This document shows, one piece after another, positions 1 through 8,614 of a stretch of 64,000 nt of DNA. Under the pieces are notes generated by a model. It was not told where the DNA came from and made no database searches. It was given only the letters and a program-made list of their open reading frames with translations. Within the stretch, counting starts at the first letter, position 1; every line of letters starts with the position of its first letter. The stretch comes from an uncultured bacterium. GTDB taxonomy: Bacteria > Bacteroidota > Bacteroidia > Bacteroidales > Marinilabiliaceae. The position numbers and the translations under genes were made by a program. The stretch spans positions 28,342 through 92,341 of the forward strand of contig CBDUZZ010000005.1 of NCBI GenBank assembly GCA_965371855.1. Reading direction: 5' to 3'.

Positions 1-842
1 TATTCATTTTGAAACGAAGGTAATTTTAATACATTATCCATTCTAAAGGAAGAATTGACAGATACACTGGTCTTTTTAGCTCCTTTTTTACCTTTTTTGG
101 TGGTAATTATAAGTGCTCCATCTTTAGCTCTAGATCCATATAAAGCAGATGCTGCAGCACCCTTCAATACTGTAATGGATTCTATATCATCAGGATTTAT
201 ATCACCTGCTTTATTGCCAACATCAACTCCTCCAGCAATAATTTCGTTTCTTGTACCATTATAACTAGAGTTTGAAATAGGAACACCATCTATAACAAAT
301 AAGGGATCATTACCCCCTGCCATAGAACTCGCACCGCGAATTAAGATTTTCGAACTTCCTCCTAGAGAACCAGACTGTTGAGTAATTCGTACGCCGGCAA
401 CTTTACCTGCCAAGGAGTTAAGTACATTTGCATCTCTAGCTTCGGTTAATGCTTCAGACTCTACTGTTGAAATAGCATAACCTAAAGATCGTTTTACCCT
501 TTTAATACCAATAGCAGTAACAATGACCTCATCAAGGTCTAAAGTTTCAGATTCCATAGCTATGTTTATCACAGTTCTTCCTTCGATAGGAACTTCCTGT
601 GTAACCATACCTATAAAAGAAAAGATTAAATGGGTTGCATCTGCAGGTGCAGATAATGAGTACTTCCCATTCTCATCAGTAATAGTACCAATAGTAGTAC
701 CTTTTACTACGATGGAAACACCCGGTACAGAGCTTCCATCCTCACTACTGGTAATTGTACCAGTAATGGTCTTTGTTTGGGCCATTAAAGAATTAATGCC
801 TACAAAGACAATTAAGAACAAAATTAAAGTTAATCTACGCAT
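1..842 (-). CDS. SusC/RagA-family TonB-linked outer-membrane receptor, N-terminal part (3' end lies beyond the window start)
   Basis: Absent from the ORF track because it is open at the window edge. Hand translation of the minus strand from ATG 840-842 gives MRRLTLILFLIVFVGINSLMAQTKTITGTITSSEDGSSVPGVSIVVKGTTIGTITDENGKYSL...DEVIVTAIGIKR...LAGKVAGVRITQQSGSLGGSSKILIRGASS...DPLFVIDGVPI...ITVLKGAAASALYGSRAKDGALIITTKKG. This is a signal peptide, a carboxypeptidase-regulatory-like domain and a plug. Plus-strand ORFs 55..264 and 523..849 are antisense shadows of it. Confidence 0.85.
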   Translation of the reverse strand, partial: MRRLTLILFLIVFVGINSLMAQTKTITGTITSSEDGSSVPGVSIVVKGTTIGTITDENGKYSLSAPADATHLIFSFIGMVTQEVPIEGRTVINIAMESETLDLDEVIVTAIGIKRVKRSLGYAISTVESEALTEARDANVLNSLAGKVAGVRITQQSGSLGGSSKILIRGASSMAGGNDPLFVIDGVPISNSSYNGTRNEIIAGGVDVGNKAGDINPDDIESITVLKGAAASALYGSRAKDGALIITTKKGKKGAKKTSVSVNSSFRMDNVLKLPSFQNE

Positions 843-1304
843 AAAATAAAGGTTTAAATTAATTAATAGTGTTTAGAATAATTGCTTAAATCATAAGCTT
901 CATGTTAAATTCATTTTCAAAATTTGTTAATCATAAAATTTTAAAGATTTAATTTTCAATACATTAATAATACTTTATCCGGAATCAATCTCCGGCAGAT
1001 AATAGTTTTTGTTTTTCATTTATTAGTAGTTTTTTATTACATCGATAAATATAGGTTAATTTTATATAAATTCTAATAAATAATAACTTTTTTTCGATTA
1101 TACGAAAACTTCAATGTTTTTCTTCAAATCTTATGAAAGCCATATAACATAAACGATTTATCATCTATCATTTTTTTTTGACATGATAAATATCATTCGC
1201 AAAGATAATATTTAGAATAAAACATCCCAAATAAATATTAAAATATTCACCTGCTTTGTTAAATAATCTTAAATGTAGATTTGTGAATACATGTATTTCG
1301 TTGG

Positions 1305-1344
1305 GAATTACGAATTACGAATTACGAATTAGGAATTAGGAATT
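1305..1344. repeat. Tandem heptamer array GAATTAC x3, GAATTAG x2, plus a partial unit
   Basis: Read directly: gaattac gaattac gaattac gaattag gaattag gaatt. It lies in the spacer between the xylE stop and the susC-like start. Confidence 0.95.
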
Positions 1345-1422
1345 TTGAAGCATATATGTGGATTGTAGATGGAATAATTGTAGCACAAAAAACCACAAAG
1401 AAAACTTATAATTGTACAATTA

Positions 1423-1445
1423 TATCATTGTATCATTGTATCATT
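1423..1445. repeat. Tandem octamer TATCATTG x3
   Basis: tatcattg tatcattg tatcatt, ending 3 nt before the xylE stop codon (1449-1451). Confidence 0.9.
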
Positions 1446-1448
1446 AAA

Positions 1449-2867
1449 CTACTTCTCCCAGAATTGCTCCATCTCTTCGAGTGTCTTACCTTTTGTTTCG
1501 GGAACCATACGCCAAACAAACAAAGTAGCCAGAATACCCATTAATCCATAAATCCAATATGCAAAACCATGATTAAACATTTCTGTTAACCATGAATTAT
1601 TATTAAGCATTGGGAATGTCCAGGATACCAAATAATTAGCAATCCATTGGGCTGCTACCGCTATTGCCATAGCACGTCCACGTATTTTGTTCGGAAATAT
1701 CTCCGATAATAATACCCATGTTACAGGTCCCCATGACATTGCAAAGAAAGCCACATAAGTAAGCATAAAAATCAATGCCCCTATACCCAATGATTGTAGA
1801 TAGAATGCCAGCCCTAATGAAACCATACTAACCGCCATCCCTATTGCACCAATAATCTGCAATGGTTTTCTGCCAAACCTGTCAACTGTAAAAATTGCGA
1901 TAACAGTAAATGTCAGATTAATTATTCCAACAATAATAGTTTGCATTAATGCGTTGTTCGTTCCGGATCCCATATTTTTAAATATCTCAGGTGCATAATA
2001 CAAAACCACATTAATACCTACAAACTGCTGAAAAACAGACAACAATATACCAACAATAATTACCACATAACCAAATGAAAAAAGAGCACTGCTTTTTTTA
2101 CTTGCTAATGACCTTTTAATATCTTCCAATATTTTTTTTGCCTTTTCTGCCCCATTTACTTTAGTTAATACATTAAGGGCATCTCCTTCACGTTTTTTAA
2201 TAACCAGCCAACGTGGACTTTCAGGAACAAAAAACAGTAAAATAAAGAACAGAATAGCCGGAATAGTTTCAGAAGCAAACATCCATCTCCATCCAATTTT
2301 ATCAAGCCATGTATTATCCCCCTTAAGAGCAATAGAATAATTAACAAAGTAAACTATAAGCATTCCGAATATTATGGCAAACTGGTTCCATGATACCAAA
2401 TTTCCTCGTTTTGATGCAGGAGCCATCTCTGCAATATATAAAGGTGATAGCATTGAAGCCAAACCCACTCCAATACCACCTATAATACGGTATATTACAA
2501 ACTGTGTTAAATAAAGATGATTTCCGGTACCTATTTCAGCAAACCCAAGTTCAGGCATTGCTGAGCCAATAGCCGAAAATGTAAACAAAATAGCAGCAAG
2601 CCTCAATGTTGAACGCCGCCCCAAATGAAGTGCTAACAATCCGCCTGAAAAACCTCCAATAATACAACCTATTAATGCACTGGAAACAACAAACCCGTGT
2701 AATGAATTTGCTTCAAACTCTTCCAACCCCTGTGGTAGAATAAAAAAGCTTTTAAGTGAGCCTACTGTTCCTGAAATAACTGCTGTATCGTAACCGAATA
2801 ATAGTCCACCCAAAGTGGCTACCAGAGTTATTCCGATGACATAATTCTTGTTATATTTCTGATTCAT
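1449..2867 (-). CDS. xylE: MFS sugar:H+ symporter, D-xylose transporter-like
   Basis: 472-aa multi-TM protein with GGLLFGYDTAVISG near the N-terminus and a PESPRWL motif, both typical of the sugar porter family. It is the last gene of the xylB-xylA-xylE cluster. Confidence 0.8.
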   Translation of the reverse strand: MNQKYNKNYVIGITLVATLGGLLFGYDTAVISGTVGSLKSFFILPQGLEEFEANSLHGFVVSSALIGCIIGGFSGGLLALHLGRRSTLRLAAILFTFSAIGSAMPELGFAEIGTGNHLYLTQFVIYRIIGGIGVGLASMLSPLYIAEMAPASKRGNLVSWNQFAIIFGMLIVYFVNYSIALKGDNTWLDKIGWRWMFASETIPAILFFILLFFVPESPRWLVIKKREGDALNVLTKVNGAEKAKKILEDIKRSLASKKSSALFSFGYVVIIVGILLSVFQQFVGINVVLYYAPEIFKNMGSGTNNALMQTIIVGIINLTFTVIAIFTVDRFGRKPLQIIGAIGMAVSMVSLGLAFYLQSLGIGALIFMLTYVAFFAMSWGPVTWVLLSEIFPNKIRGRAMAIAVAAQWIANYLVSWTFPMLNNNSWLTEMFNHGFAYWIYGLMGILATLFVWRMVPETKGKTLEEMEQFWEK

Positions 2868-2887
2868 AGTTTATGGTTAATTGTTGA

Positions 2888-2989
2888 TTACCTGTTTATT
2901 TGGTTATTGGTTACCTGTTTATTTGGTTATTGGTTATTGGTTATTGGTTATTGAGTGTTGGATATTGGATATTGAATATTGAATATTGA
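2888..2989. repeat. Composite tandem array: 23-mer x2, then eight heptamers (TTATTGG / ATATTGG / ATATTGA types)
   Basis: ttacctgtttatttggttattgg occurs at 2888-2910 and 2911-2933, followed by ttattgg ttattgg ttattga gtgttgg atattgg atattga atattga atattga. An inverted partial copy, ccaatatcaataaccaat, lies at 3004-3021. The array fills the xylA-xylE intercistronic spacer. Confidence 0.95.
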
Positions 2990-3036
2990 TTTTCCCTGAA
3001 CACCCAATATCAATAACCAATTTCCAGCCTCCAGCA

Positions 3037-4362
3037 TCAAATATAAAGATTAATTAACTGCTCGTACAGCTCTTGTTTACCACTTCTTTGTTGGGGTTCT
3101 CCCACGCTCCCTGCAATCTCATACAAATCTTCAAGCGATAGTTTACCGGCCGAAAATTCGGATCCTTTACCTGTATCAAAAGAAGCATACCGATTATTTC
3201 TCATTTTCATATAATCAGACTCATTTAGTATTCTGTCAGCAATAAGCAATGCCCGGGCAAAAACATCCATACCACCAATGTGGGCAATAAACAGGTCTTC
3301 CAGATCGGTTGAATTACGACGAGTTTTTGCATCAAAGTTTATACCTCCATGGGTAAAACCACCTCCCTGTATTATTTCCAGCATTGCAACTGTAGTTTCA
3401 TAAATATTTGTAGGGAACTCATCGGTATCCCATCCGTTTTGATAATCACCTTTATTGGCATCTATCGAACCAAGCAGACCGGCATCAGTGGCAACACGCA
3501 GTTCATGCTCGAATGTGTGCTGTGCTAAAGTAGCATGATTGACTTCAATATTCATTTTAAAATCTTTATCCAAACCATAATGGCGAAGGAAACCAATAAC
3601 AGTAGCAGTATCGAAGTCATACTGATGTTTTGTAGGTTCCATAGGTTTGGGTTCAATAAAAAACGTACCGGTAAAACCCTGTTTGCGACCGTAATCTCTG
3701 GCTATTGTAAGCATCTGTGCCAAATGATCCAGCTCTATTTTCATATTGGTATTGTGCAGAGACATATACCCTTCACGGCCTCCCCAGAAAACATAACCTG
3801 TACCACCCAAAGCAATAGTTGCATCAATAGCATTTTTAATTTGAACTCCAGCATTTGCAACAACATTAAAATCAGGGTTTGTAGCAGCACCATTCATATA
3901 CCTCGGATCGGAAAAGACGTTTGCAGTACCCCACAACAGCTTCACTCCGGATGCTTCCTGTTTTCGTTTTGCAAGGTCAACTATTTTTGATAATTTCTTT
4001 TCGATATGAAATACGGAACCTCCACCAACTAAATCGGTATCATGAAAGCAATAATGGGGCACACCTAATTTAGTGATAAACTCAAATGCAGCGTCCAGTT
4101 TGGCCTTAGCAGCATCCATCTCACCGGCCGGCTTGTCCCATTCTAATAATTTTGTTCCGGGACCAAAGGGATCACCTCCTGTTCCGCAAAATGTATGCCA
4201 GTAAGCTACCGCAAAACGTAGATGCTCTTTCATTGTTTTATCACCTACAATTTTATTCTCATCATACCATTTAAATGCTAATGGATTTTTAGACTCTTTG
4301 CCTTCGTACTCAACCTTGTCTATTCCTTTAAAGTACTCCTTCTCTCCTATTAATACGCTCAT
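3037..4362 (-). CDS. xylA: Xylose isomerase
   Basis: Motifs [35 protein letters not shown] and [18 protein letters not shown] moved the start to ATG 4360-4362 ([13 protein letters not shown]...). The 47 extra residues in track ORF 3037..4503 are read-through of a heptamer array. Confidence 0.95.
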
Positions 4363-4370
4363 GTTAGTGT

Positions 4371-4469
4371 TGTTTATTTGGTTATTTGTTCCTTGTTTCT
4401 GGTTCCTTGTTTCTGGTTCCTTGTTCCTTGTTTCTTGTTCCTTGTTTCTTGTTCCTTGTTCCTTGTTTG
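4371..4469. repeat. 15-mer TGTTTATTTGGTTAT followed by about 12 tandem heptamers (GTTCCTT / GTTTCTT / GTTTCTG)
   Basis: Read directly. The array fills the whole xylB-stop to xylA-start spacer. The 15-mer is also present twice in the 2888-2933 array (2893-2907 and 2916-2930). Confidence 0.95.
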
Positions 4470-5957
4470 TCAATTTATCATTAAAAGAAGCTTCTTCTCC
4501 CACTTTTCGTAAGCCTTATCCAATGACTCTTTCCATTCTTTTTCAGGATTAATTGTTTCAACGCATTTCAAACCACTAAAGGCTTCTTTTTCCGATTTAT
4601 AGTATCCCAGACCCAGTCCGGCACCGCGAGCTGCTCCCGCCGAACCGTCGGTATTATACAGTTCAATAACAGCACCACTAAGTGTTGCCAATGTTTTTGC
4701 AAATACTTCACTCTGAAAAAGATTAGCGTATCCTGCACGAATAAGATTTGTATCTATGCCCATATCATTTATGATATTCATTCCGTAATAAAATGAAAAA
4801 GCAATACCTTCCAAAGCAGCCCTTAAAAGATGCTTATCCTGATGAATATTAAAATTAATATCTGTAAACTGAGCTCCCGGATTTGCGTTCTCCAACATAC
4901 GTTCGGCACCATTACCAAACGGAAAGCACAATACTCCTTCACTACCGGGATCAACCTCTTCAGCCATTTTGTTCAAAGCCGGATAATCAAAACGCTCCTG
5001 TCCCATCAAACGTTTAAGCCAGGCATATTGAATTCCTGTACCATTCACACATAACAGTACACCCAATCGCTTAACATTTCGGGTATGATTAACATGAGCA
5101 AAAACATTTACTCTTGAACGCAGATCAAATACTTTTTCCCCGGCAACGGCATATACCACTCCTGATGTTCCGCCGGTAGCTGCCACCTCACCCGGATTAA
5201 GTACATTAAGTGAAAAAGCATTATTCGGTTGATCGCCTGCACGGTATGTTACCGGTATCCCCGATTTTAATCCGAGTTCTTTTGCCACATCTTTTTTCAG
5301 AGTTACCTGATCACCAAAGCCCGGCACAACATCAGGAATCATTCTTTTCTCAAAACCATAATAATCCAACAACTTTTCAGATAAAGAGTTGGTCTCAAAA
5401 TCCCAGAATATTCCTTCAGAAAGTCCGGATATAGTTGTTGTGGTTTTACCCGACAATCGCATAGCGATATAATCACCCGGAAGTAAAAATTTATCAACTT
5501 TATTATAAAGTTCAGGTTCGTTATCTTTTACCCATTTAAGTTTTGATGCGGTAAAATTACCAGGTGAATTAAGTAAGTGAGTTAAACTCCACTCTTCACC
5601 CAATTCCACTGTCGCTTTATCTCCTATGCTTACAGCCCGGCTATCACACCAAATAATAGAAGGACGAATAACCTGCTGTTTTTTATCTACCAAAACTAAG
5701 CCATGCATCTGATAACTAATTCCTATTGCACTAATCTCTTCCCTATCTACATCAGCCCTTTGTAAAACTTCCGAAATTGCCTTCTGCAAATAGACAAACC
5801 ACATTTCCGGCGATTGTTCTGCCCAATCTGACTGAACGGAAACAATCTCCATCTCTTCTTTTGGTTGTTGCGCCTGTACAATTACGTCTCCTGTACTCCC
5901 ATCAATAACCGAAACCTTAACGGATGAACTACCTAAATCAATACCTAAAAATTGCAT
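4470..5957 (-). CDS. xylB: Xylulokinase (FGGY carbohydrate kinase)
   Basis: [15 protein letters not shown]... N-terminal kinase motif and FGGY-family length (495 aa). It lies directly upstream of xylA. Confidence 0.85.
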
Positions 5958-5988
5958 AGTCTGTTATGTTCTGTTCTGTTTGTGTTAG

Positions 5989-5996
5989 CAAAAGTA
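5989..5996 (-). promoter_or_regulatory. Possible Bacteroidota -7 promoter box (TAnnTTTG) for the xyl operon
   Basis: The minus strand reads TACTTTTG about 32 nt upstream of the xylB ATG. I saw no clean -33 TTTG. Confidence 0.3.
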
Positions 5997-6033
5997 GTAA
6001 TTTTTTATTAAAACACAATACAATAAGAGATAA

Positions 6034-6081
6034 CGGCTAAATATTATCCGTCAATAAAAAGCCGGACAGGTTTTGAGGTGC
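6034..6081 (-). promoter_or_regulatory. Bipartite motif GCACCTCAAAA-N23-ATAATATTTAGCCG, copy A, pointing at xylB
   Basis: The same two half-sites recur at 52685-52707 (N0) and 52900-52943 (N19). This copy ends 76 nt upstream of the xylB ATG. Confidence 0.5.
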
Positions 6082-6130
6082 TACTATTTAAAGAGGTTGA
6101 TATTAAAAAAAATGAGTATCCGTATGAATA

Positions 6131-6293
6131 CCTAATTGGGGTAAACGAATTGAGTTAATAAATATGTAAATTAAGCCCCTTTAGGGGTTTGGGGTAGTTA
6201 ACCTTCACCCCTCAGTCCCCTAAAGGGGATGACTGTATGGTATTTTAATTCACCCCCAATTGACTTCGCCTATCTTCGATTCCCCTAAGGGGA
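6131..6293. repeat. Cluster of GC-rich mini-palindromes (CCCCT-loop-AGGGG type)
   Basis: gcccctttaggggt (6175-6188), GGGG 6191-6194 paired with CCCC 6208-6211, tcccctaaagggga (6216-6229) and tcccctaagggga (6281-6293). An outer pair, cctaattggggt (6131-6142) and acccccaattg (6252-6262), encloses the first three but not the fourth. The cluster lies just downstream of the V-ATPase operon. Confidence 0.7.
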
Positions 6294-6321
6294 GCTGATT
6301 AGCAACTTAGTATGTTATATT

Positions 6322-8614
<2,293 letters not shown>

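Follow-up and report, generated by a model that had tools for sequence, protein, structure and literature searches.

Heptamer tandem arrays in the spacers of a Bacteroidota xylose operon belong to a genome-wide class oriented by position relative to start and stop codons

Why do both intercistronic spacers of a xylose operon carry long runs of seven-nucleotide units repeated in tandem? The question is raised by a 64,000-nucleotide stretch of DNA, here called the window, from an uncultured member of the Marinilabiliaceae (Bacteroidota; GenBank assembly GCA_965371855.1, contig CBDUZZ010000005.1), which is C5:28342-92341 of a 4.37-Mb draft genome with 36% GC, designated G000. Three cistrons are read from its minus strand in the order xylB (xylulokinase), xylA (xylose isomerase) and xylE (D-xylose:H+ symporter), and a first-pass annotation proposed that the heptamer arrays between them act as translation-enhancing spacers or as elements that tune cistron ratios by their copy number. 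Heptamer arrays have been known since 1990. Those of the xyl operon are two among several hundred arrays of a published class and do not constitute a xyl-specific device. Such arrays survive almost solely in transcribed non-coding spacers and turn over quickly between species, and which way round they lie varies with the neighboring codon: beside a stop the sense strand holds more G than C, whereas beside a start it is rich in A and C, poor in G, nearly free of start codons and almost unstructured.

The spacer between xylB and xylA, 107 nt long, reads on the mRNA strand as (GGAACAA/GAAACAA/GGAACCA)n, followed by the 15-mer ATAACCAAATAAACA, 8 nt and the xylA ATG. Tandem Repeats Finder (TRF) delimits the array at positions 4386-4467 (minus strand, as for all xyl features below unless stated) and describes it as 11.7 units of AAGGAAC/AAGAAAC/CAGAAAC (period 7, score 122), in agreement with the dozen units first counted. 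It begins 2 nt past the xylB stop, and none of its frames contains a stop or a start codon. Over its 82 nt, the mRNA strand of the array is A-rich and U-free (A 61%, G 22%, C 17%, U 0%), and the whole spacer has A 61%, C 20%, G 17% and U 3%. AUG, GUG and UUG are all absent from the spacer mRNA, which is almost unstructured, with a predicted minimum free energy of just -2.9 kcal/mol across 131 nt; RNA folding revealed no inverted partner of the array and no terminal stem of 20 bp or more there. Two-unit blocks are visible within the array, namely (GGAACAA GAAACAA)x2 and (GGAACCA GAAACAA)x2.

The spacer between xylA and xylE, 169 nt long, is more elaborate. Its arrays (2884-2989) comprise about five units of CAATATT/CAATATC, about five of CAATAAC and about three copies of the 23-mer CAATAACCAAATAAACAGGTAAC, which TRF reports as three overlapping rows: 2884-2953 with period 23 (3.1 copies, score 105), 2900-2974 with period 7 (10.4 copies) and 2949-2989 with period 7 (5.9 copies). 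The first-pass annotation, which had rightly recognized heptamer arrays in both spacers, gave two copies of the 23-mer and eight heptamers here, compared with the three and about ten of TRF. The G-poverty that it ascribed to both arrays on the mRNA strand is a property of this one (4% G) but not of the xylB-xylA array. An exact-match genome scan bore out its placement of the 15-mer ATAACCAAATAAACA near both downstream start codons, once ending 8 nt before the xylA ATG (4371-4385) and twice before xylE (2916-2930 and 2893-2907).

Within the same spacer, a G/U-rich segment starting about 15 nt past the xylA stop (UUGGUUAUUGAUAUUGGGUGUU, 2999-3021) is predicted to form the 5′ arm of a hairpin whose 3′ arm consists of C/A-rich array units (AACACUCAAUAACCAAUAACC, 2936-2959), as had been anticipated from an inverted partial copy of the repeats at this position. 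The fold has an energy of -35.8 kcal/mol (z = -3.2; equalled by 1 of 200 shuffles) and a stem of about 22 bp made of opposed array units, with about 40 nt and no open reading frame (ORF) between the arms; about 80 nt of open CA-rich repeats then separate the hairpin from the xylE ATG. An intrinsic terminator was considered for the xyl spacers and rejected, there being no GC-rich hairpin followed by a U tract: the xylA-xylE stem is AT-rich, with AACCAAUAACC after it. No gene-level pairing was seen between the arrays in the leader and the trailer of xylE.

Similar arrays are found throughout the genome. TRF was run on the complete assembly, at least three copies being required of merged period-7 arrays, and array context was taken from a crude gene caller of our own run with the arrays masked. 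The period spectrum peaks at 7. Merged period-7 arrays number 316, totaling 12.7 kb and representing 129 distinct units (the commonest family, AATTACG, accounts for 20 arrays), and there are also 167 period-8 and 93 period-9 arrays. Non-coding TRF rows with periods 7, 8 and 9 number 339, 177 and 60, compared with 4.3, 1.3 and 3.3 in third-order Markov simulations, and the excess of period-7 and period-8 arrays over that model is about 80-fold. Roughly 92% of arrays are non-coding, just 26 of the 316 lying in ORFs with a coding signal on both sides. Their density is 0.66/kb in spacers between tandem genes and 0.63/kb between convergent genes but only 0.13/kb between divergent genes, a five-fold depletion (p = 2e-12). 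The upstream stop is nearer than the downstream start for 144 arrays and the start is nearer for 83; where an array adjoins a confident gene, the stop codon falls inside it in 67 of 254 cases. These figures are a lower bound, because the assembly breaks at long arrays, 21 of the 260 contig ends falling inside a tandem array, 15 of them with period 7 (for example C50, C52, C55, C82, C84 and C90). A search for inverted partners was not discriminating with 12-mers and up to 2 mismatches (103 versus 93 decoys), and gave 46 versus 13 decoys at stricter settings. Loss of mismatch repair was rejected as a cause of this richness, MutS and MutL being intact in G000 and its congeners. A count of AAGGTNN arrays over 121 genomes of the order follows one unit family and is a weak proxy for array richness.

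The genome-wide count called for by the first-pass annotation revealed a strong bias of orientation relative to genes. Polarity was scored as the number of arrays with G>C against the number with G<C on the sense strand. Where a stop codon lies inside or abuts the array, the ratio is 61:7 for period 7 and 32:4 for period 8, and where the array starts 1-10 nt past the stop it is 34:9 and 16:4; the persistence of the bias in the 34:9 set eliminates the stop codons themselves as its sole cause. Pooled near stops, the period-8 arrays, which form an independent set, stand at 48:8, and period-7 arrays of convergent spacers situated no more than 10 nt from the nearest stop at 22:4. The ratio is inverted where 0-10 nt separate the end of the array from a start codon, at 8:31 (period 7) and 0:34 (period 8); among these period-7 arrays, ATG occurs on the sense strand of 2 and on the antisense strand of 15. 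The same unit families are used in both orientations, GAATTAC appearing after stops and GTAATTC before starts, and likewise CTGTTTAT and ATAAACAG. Array-free spacers display the same trend faintly (463:288 after stops, 333:400 before starts).

The xyl operon obeys this rule at four of four junctions. Directly before the xylB ATG is a start-proximal type repeat, AACAG x4 (5960-5980; TRF period 5, 4.2 copies; C>G on the mRNA strand), and the AAGGAAC array, with G>C, abuts the xylB stop. The G/U-rich hairpin arm lies past the xylA stop and CAATAAC/CAATATT units precede xylE, while a stop-proximal type octamer array of AATGATAC (4.9 copies, TRF, 1407-1445) is found right after the xylE stop.

What this orientation means for an mRNA was assessed by reverse-complementing each array in silico and folding the start-proximal region from -60 to +15 in 77 cases. 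These leaders average -3.9 kcal/mol in the native orientation versus -8.3 kcal/mol when flipped, with the native form less structured in 64 of the 77 and the flipped form in 11 (p = 2e-11). Six hundred array-free control leaders average -7.9 kcal/mol, so that the array leaders are the more open ones (p = 1.5e-15), and they are also richer in A (44% versus 38% in ordinary leaders). Upstream ATG, GTG or TTG triplets number 1.26 per leader in the native orientation, 4.35 in the flipped one and 2.3 in the controls. The start-proximal orientation thus yields unusually open leaders that are poor in start codons. Next to stop codons the flip test is weak (-12.6 kcal/mol native versus -11.1 flipped, p = 0.05), and native arrays contain 4.7 YC dinucleotides per 90 nt versus 8.8 after flipping.

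Variation of the arrays was compared between species, with G002, G003 and G004 as congeners of G000 and G011 as a further genome. The nearest named relatives by XylA are Saccharicrinis metagenome-assembled genomes, at 85% identity. Protein-guided scans of genome and metagenome contigs retrieved no relative above 85% XylA identity, and neither exact-protein look-ups for XylA and XylE nor an exact 27-mer scan of metagenome contigs produced a match. The xylB-xylA-xylE order is kept in most of 80 family-level related loci; in most of them the spacers flanking xylA are array-free, and a few have short xylB-xylA arrays built from other units. In G002 the xylB-xylA spacer is 34 nt long and array-free, and a small hairpin with TAACCAA x2.7 follows xylA. 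G004 has four copies of TAAACAAA before xylA and unrelated heptamers (GGATACT, ACTGAGA, CTGGGAA) between xylA and xylE; the xylA-xylE spacer of G003 (locus L094), a run of N that is either masked or an assembly gap, was left out of the comparison. The xyl spacers therefore differ between congeners. An extra gene of about 1.4 kb lies between xylB and xylA in L095 (G004:C376, 1643-3062) and in L094 (G003:C299), and is absent from G000, G002 and most of the 80 loci. Its predicted N-terminus resembles a signal peptide (SRRTFIKSASVAGVGAM), and the xylB-xylA array of G000 occupies the position that this gene has in the closest relative.

Comparable turnover is seen beyond the operon. In 60 syntenic spacers, arrays are present in 17 in G000 and in 11 in G004, with both genomes carrying one in 8 (3.1 expected, p = 0.001), and at those 8 the units always differ. 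Where a G000 spacer bears an array, its G002 counterpart is shorter by roughly the array's length. In sampled sequence, G000 has 77 TRF rows per Mb, compared with 30 in G004, 3 in G002 and 18 in G011. Between kdgK and eda, the TAATGGT/TAATGAT family is present both in G004 (at least 12 units, the contig ending in the array) and in G000 (4.7 units), and in four relatives the arrays between thiL and ruvA are G-rich when they follow the stop and C-rich when they precede the start. The first-pass annotation would have settled for neutral slippage products had the arrays lacked an orientation bias, variation among strains and any effect on downstream expression; with the strong genome-wide bias, that refutation fails, and the spacers also differ between congeners.

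On balance, the evidence leans toward the xyl arrays being slippage arrays of the type described as short tandemly repeated repetitive sequences (STRR) or long simple sequence repeats (LSSR), filtered by selection for compatibility with the mRNA. Replication slippage would make the arrays and resize them in whole units and in two-unit blocks, as the blocks visible in the xylB-xylA array suggest. Selection would then purge those arrays whose orientation harms translation, because Bacteroidota initiate independently of a Shine-Dalgarno sequence and need open, A-rich leaders. What remains would be mainly tolerated, translation-compatible padding, although the xylA-xylE hairpin may modestly affect mRNA stability or processing.

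Several observations sit uneasily with this account. Translation constraints do not explain the stop-proximal G>C bias, given that flipping those arrays shifts their folding so weakly, and the bias is also present in arrays that begin past the stop codon. It is, moreover, four- to seven-fold stronger than in ordinary spacers, which could reflect a positive function rather than filtering. The co-occurrence of arrays at orthologous spacers above chance could likewise point to function as well as to sites that are merely permissive. Finally, the strong association of arrays with PF05635 genes described below suggests that some of them belong to an element rather than being free products of slippage.

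The proposal closest to that of the first-pass annotation, that the arrays are active translational enhancers or tuning knobs, seems unlikely. They would recruit ribosomes, for instance through protein S1, or allow scanning after termination to the next AUG, and changes in unit number would set the ratio of XylB, XylA and XylE protein. The xylB-xylA spacer suits such a role, being A-rich, nearly unstructured, devoid of AUG, GUG and UUG and near a start codon, and array leaders in general are more open and more A-rich than ordinary ones. Roles in translation have also been proposed for TAACTGA repeats before starts in Beggiatoaceae (PMC4679880) and for heptamers before recF in Nostoc (bioRxiv 10.1101/2022.06.06.494920), but these proposals are themselves speculative. 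The idea that the arrays are translation-enhancing A-rich spacers therefore holds as far as the open leader is concerned, and enhancement itself is not borne out: G002 and most of the 80 relatives manage the same operon with short array-free spacers, of 34 nt in G002, more arrays lie nearer to stops than to starts, and the units in orthologous spacers are unrelated.

An origin in inserted cassettes, although improbable for the xyl arrays, is suggested by a family of small genes elsewhere in the genome. G000 contains 24 matches to PF05635, the family of the 23S rRNA intervening sequence (IVS) protein or S23p-type four-helix bundle, 22 of them above the family cut-off; all are outside the xyl region of the window, and examples beyond the window are C69:12191-12602, C19:42881-43474, C60:19027-19686, C1:57975-58302 and C3:31741-32247. 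Arrays flank 14 of the 24 on both sides, whereas among 3300 other genes the number is 121 (odds ratio 37, p = 2e-14), and all 21 that have two called neighbors are co-oriented with them. They sit in operon spacers, such as those between kdgK and eda, between thiL and ruvA and in an operon for a resistance-nodulation-division (RND) pump. The flanking arms are typically inverted, G-rich upstream and complementary and C-rich downstream, with a duplex energy of -47 kcal/mol versus -33 for shuffles and for control small genes, and close paralogues have arm families in common in three of four pairs. The cassette is missing from both kdgK-eda and thiL-ruvA in eight relatives, although at kdgK-eda only seven can be read, the G004 contig breaking off there within the array. 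In one 20-kb region (C19:26000-46500), four PF05635 copies occur together with many arrays; the starts of the neighboring genes resemble those of an asparagine-synthase-type enzyme and of other biosynthetic proteins.

By this account, the arrays would be arms or relics of IVS-like cassettes that insert co-directionally into operon spacers. The xylA-xylE hairpin, with a stem of at least 20 bp, would be a version without the ORF, solo arrays would be leftover arms, and the stem, by analogy with the Coxiella IVS with its S23p ORF, 28-bp stem and excision by RNase III (PMC4990558), might be an RNase III site at which the operon mRNA is cut between cistrons. The polarity, with the G-rich strand running 5′ to 3′ away from the adjacent gene, may be general to short-period arrays rather than to G-quadruplex repeats, and there is some small prospect that it arises because the arrays are stems, or remnants of stems, of such cassettes, which RNase III would cut out of the mRNA; if so, xylE would be uncoupled from xylBA by the xylA-xylE hairpin, acting as a processing site without an ORF. 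However, just 38 of 457 arrays are near a PF05635 gene, and the 355 solo arrays keep the polarity equally strongly (119:17 and 6:50). Nor does the number of PF05635 copies track array density: G004 has a single copy at 30 rows/Mb, and G002 has 4 copies at 3 rows/Mb. In the xyl operon itself, no PF05635 remnant was detected in either spacer, and the xylB-xylA array is without an inverted partner.

That the repeated words, above all the shared 15-mer, are DNA or RNA sites for a specific regulator of the xylose operon is highly improbable: exact ATAACCAAATAAACA is confined to its three copies in the two xyl spacers of the 4.37-Mb genome, but it is absent from the xylB promoter region, one-mismatch variants precede 13 unrelated genes, and the genome-wide class to which the arrays belong has 129 unit types. 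The 15-mer was also sought as a regulatory word conserved in the xylA leaders of about 70 relatives, which are simply AT-rich, and was not found. On the favored slippage account, it would most simply be a leader-type word copied locally from one spacer to the other, 1.45 kb away.

Gene identities in the window rest on NCBIfam profile matches. The first cistron, xylB (4470-5957), matches TIGR01312 XylB with 303 bits, under the 380-bit cut-off of the model, and this is the top of 12 FGGY-kinase matches; xylA (3037-4362) scores 687 bits, above cut-off, with the profile spanning residues 8-441; and the third cistron, xylE (1449-2867), matches NF007484 with 801 bits, also above cut-off. About 105 nt downstream of xylE is a further heptamer array, GAATTAC x5.7 (1305-1344, TRF, no strand assigned). 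The -7 promoter box of Bacteroidota is TAnnTTTG, and TACTTTTG, at 5989-5996 about 31 nt upstream of the xylB ATG, fits it and is likely to be the operon promoter. Inspection of both intercistronic spacers found no TTTG on the sense strand, which suggests that there is no internal promoter and, with the candidate box upstream of xylB, that the three genes share a single transcript. A sigma-70 promoter and terminator scan of the xyl region gave no signal beyond that of shuffles and none in the spacers, and the Rfam 15 covariance models had no match at E <= 0.1 within 800-6400. GC-rich palindromic elements (CCCCTTTAGGGG, CCCCTAAAGGGG) are found at about 6170-6300, with the xylB promoter region on one side and the V-ATPase K gene on the other. 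Comparable GC-rich hairpins occur in operon spacers of relatives, before xylA in L009, L054, L070 and L071 and between kdgK and eda in G001 and G002.

The xylA start is the ATG at 4362, whereas the ORF list gives 3037-4503 on the minus strand. The xylA frame has no stop through the xylB-xylA array, up to a GTG at 4503 that overlaps the 3′ end of xylB, and a gene caller could thus wrongly extend XylA by 47 residues encoded by the repeats. In annotation, an array without in-frame stops can lengthen a gene wrongly in this manner, and arrays also break assemblies. Elsewhere, a long open frame of membrane-protein character (C36:12137-14083) crosses six heptamer arrays, including GGTTCAA and the complement AACCCGG, and these appear to be inserted in frame in a coding gene.

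Overall, the first-pass annotation was sound in what it observed and in part supported in how it interpreted it, since the analogy with STRR, the biased orientation and the openness of the leaders stand up. G000 offers a dense example of AT-rich arrays in a phylum that starts translation without Shine-Dalgarno sequences, and ties a sharp polarity to a measurable property, an in silico flip doubling the predicted structure of the leader and tripling its upstream start codons. The bracketing of S23p-type genes by inverted arrays provides a second lead on where arrays come from.

Among known systems, the likeness to STRR that was first suggested is apt. The STRR heptamers of heterocystous cyanobacteria (Calothrix, Anabaena/Nostoc) comprise several families per genome and reside in intergenic regions and intercistronic operon spacers; the Calothrix work is cited in PMC4692102. 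At the level of that general description, the G000 arrays share the several heptamer families and the location in operon spacers, and differ in phylum and in unit sequence. The xyl arrays belong to the STRR/LSSR heptamer class, all five of its tested features being found here, with variation seen at the species level. The LSSR of Mrazek, Guo and Shah 2007, as summarized in PMC4679880, have units of 5-11 nt with heptamers commonest, and polymerase slippage was proposed for them; the G000 arrays resemble them in unit size, and in that summary LSSR are described at survey level, without gene-relative polarity.

The TAACTGA heptamer repeats that MacGregor 2015 described in marine Beggiatoaceae, cyanobacteria and five Bacteroidetes usually number 2-6 copies, and many lie a few nucleotides before start codons in forward orientation; in Gramella and Aequorivita, long arrays occur beside other heptamers (PMC4679880). 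The G000 arrays are similarly intergenic direct repeats of heptamers, many of them just before starts. Unlike the TAACTGA repeats, in which one unit was followed, they are built from many different units, form longer arrays and include a class that clearly lies next to stops. The IVS of 23S rRNA in Coxiella, Leptospira and others provides a different comparison, with its S23p ORF, terminal stem of 28 bp in Coxiella and excision by RNase III (PMC4990558). The PF05635 cassettes of G000 resemble it as terminal inverted repeats that could form a stem around a small S23p-type ORF, but they sit in mRNA spacers, with stems composed of tandem heptamers, and no such ORF is present in the xyl spacers.

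The closest counterparts are the GGGAATC heptamers of Xanthomonas and the GGGGA(C/T)T heptamers of Nostoc (Rehm et al. 2015; PMC4692102). These are mainly intergenic, enriched between aligned ORFs and depleted between divergent ones, with the G-rich strand sense up to 50 bp past stops, overlaps included, and antisense up to 50 bp before starts; their length and sequence vary between relatives, and some form inverted pairs (PMC4692102). The G000 arrays share the period of 7, the non-coding location, the enrichment between co-directional ORFs, the depletion in divergent spacers, the polarity, the inverted pairs and the variability between relatives. They differ in that their units are AT-rich and of 129 kinds, octamers obey the rule too, and the host belongs to the Bacteroidota. 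Membership in the G-quadruplex-forming subclass was considered and rejected, as the xyl units AAGGAAC, CAATAAC and CAATATT have no runs of three or more G and the common G000 units are AT-rich. What G000 adds to the published class is thus that its polarity rule holds for AT-rich units unable to form G-quadruplexes, and for octamers as well as heptamers.

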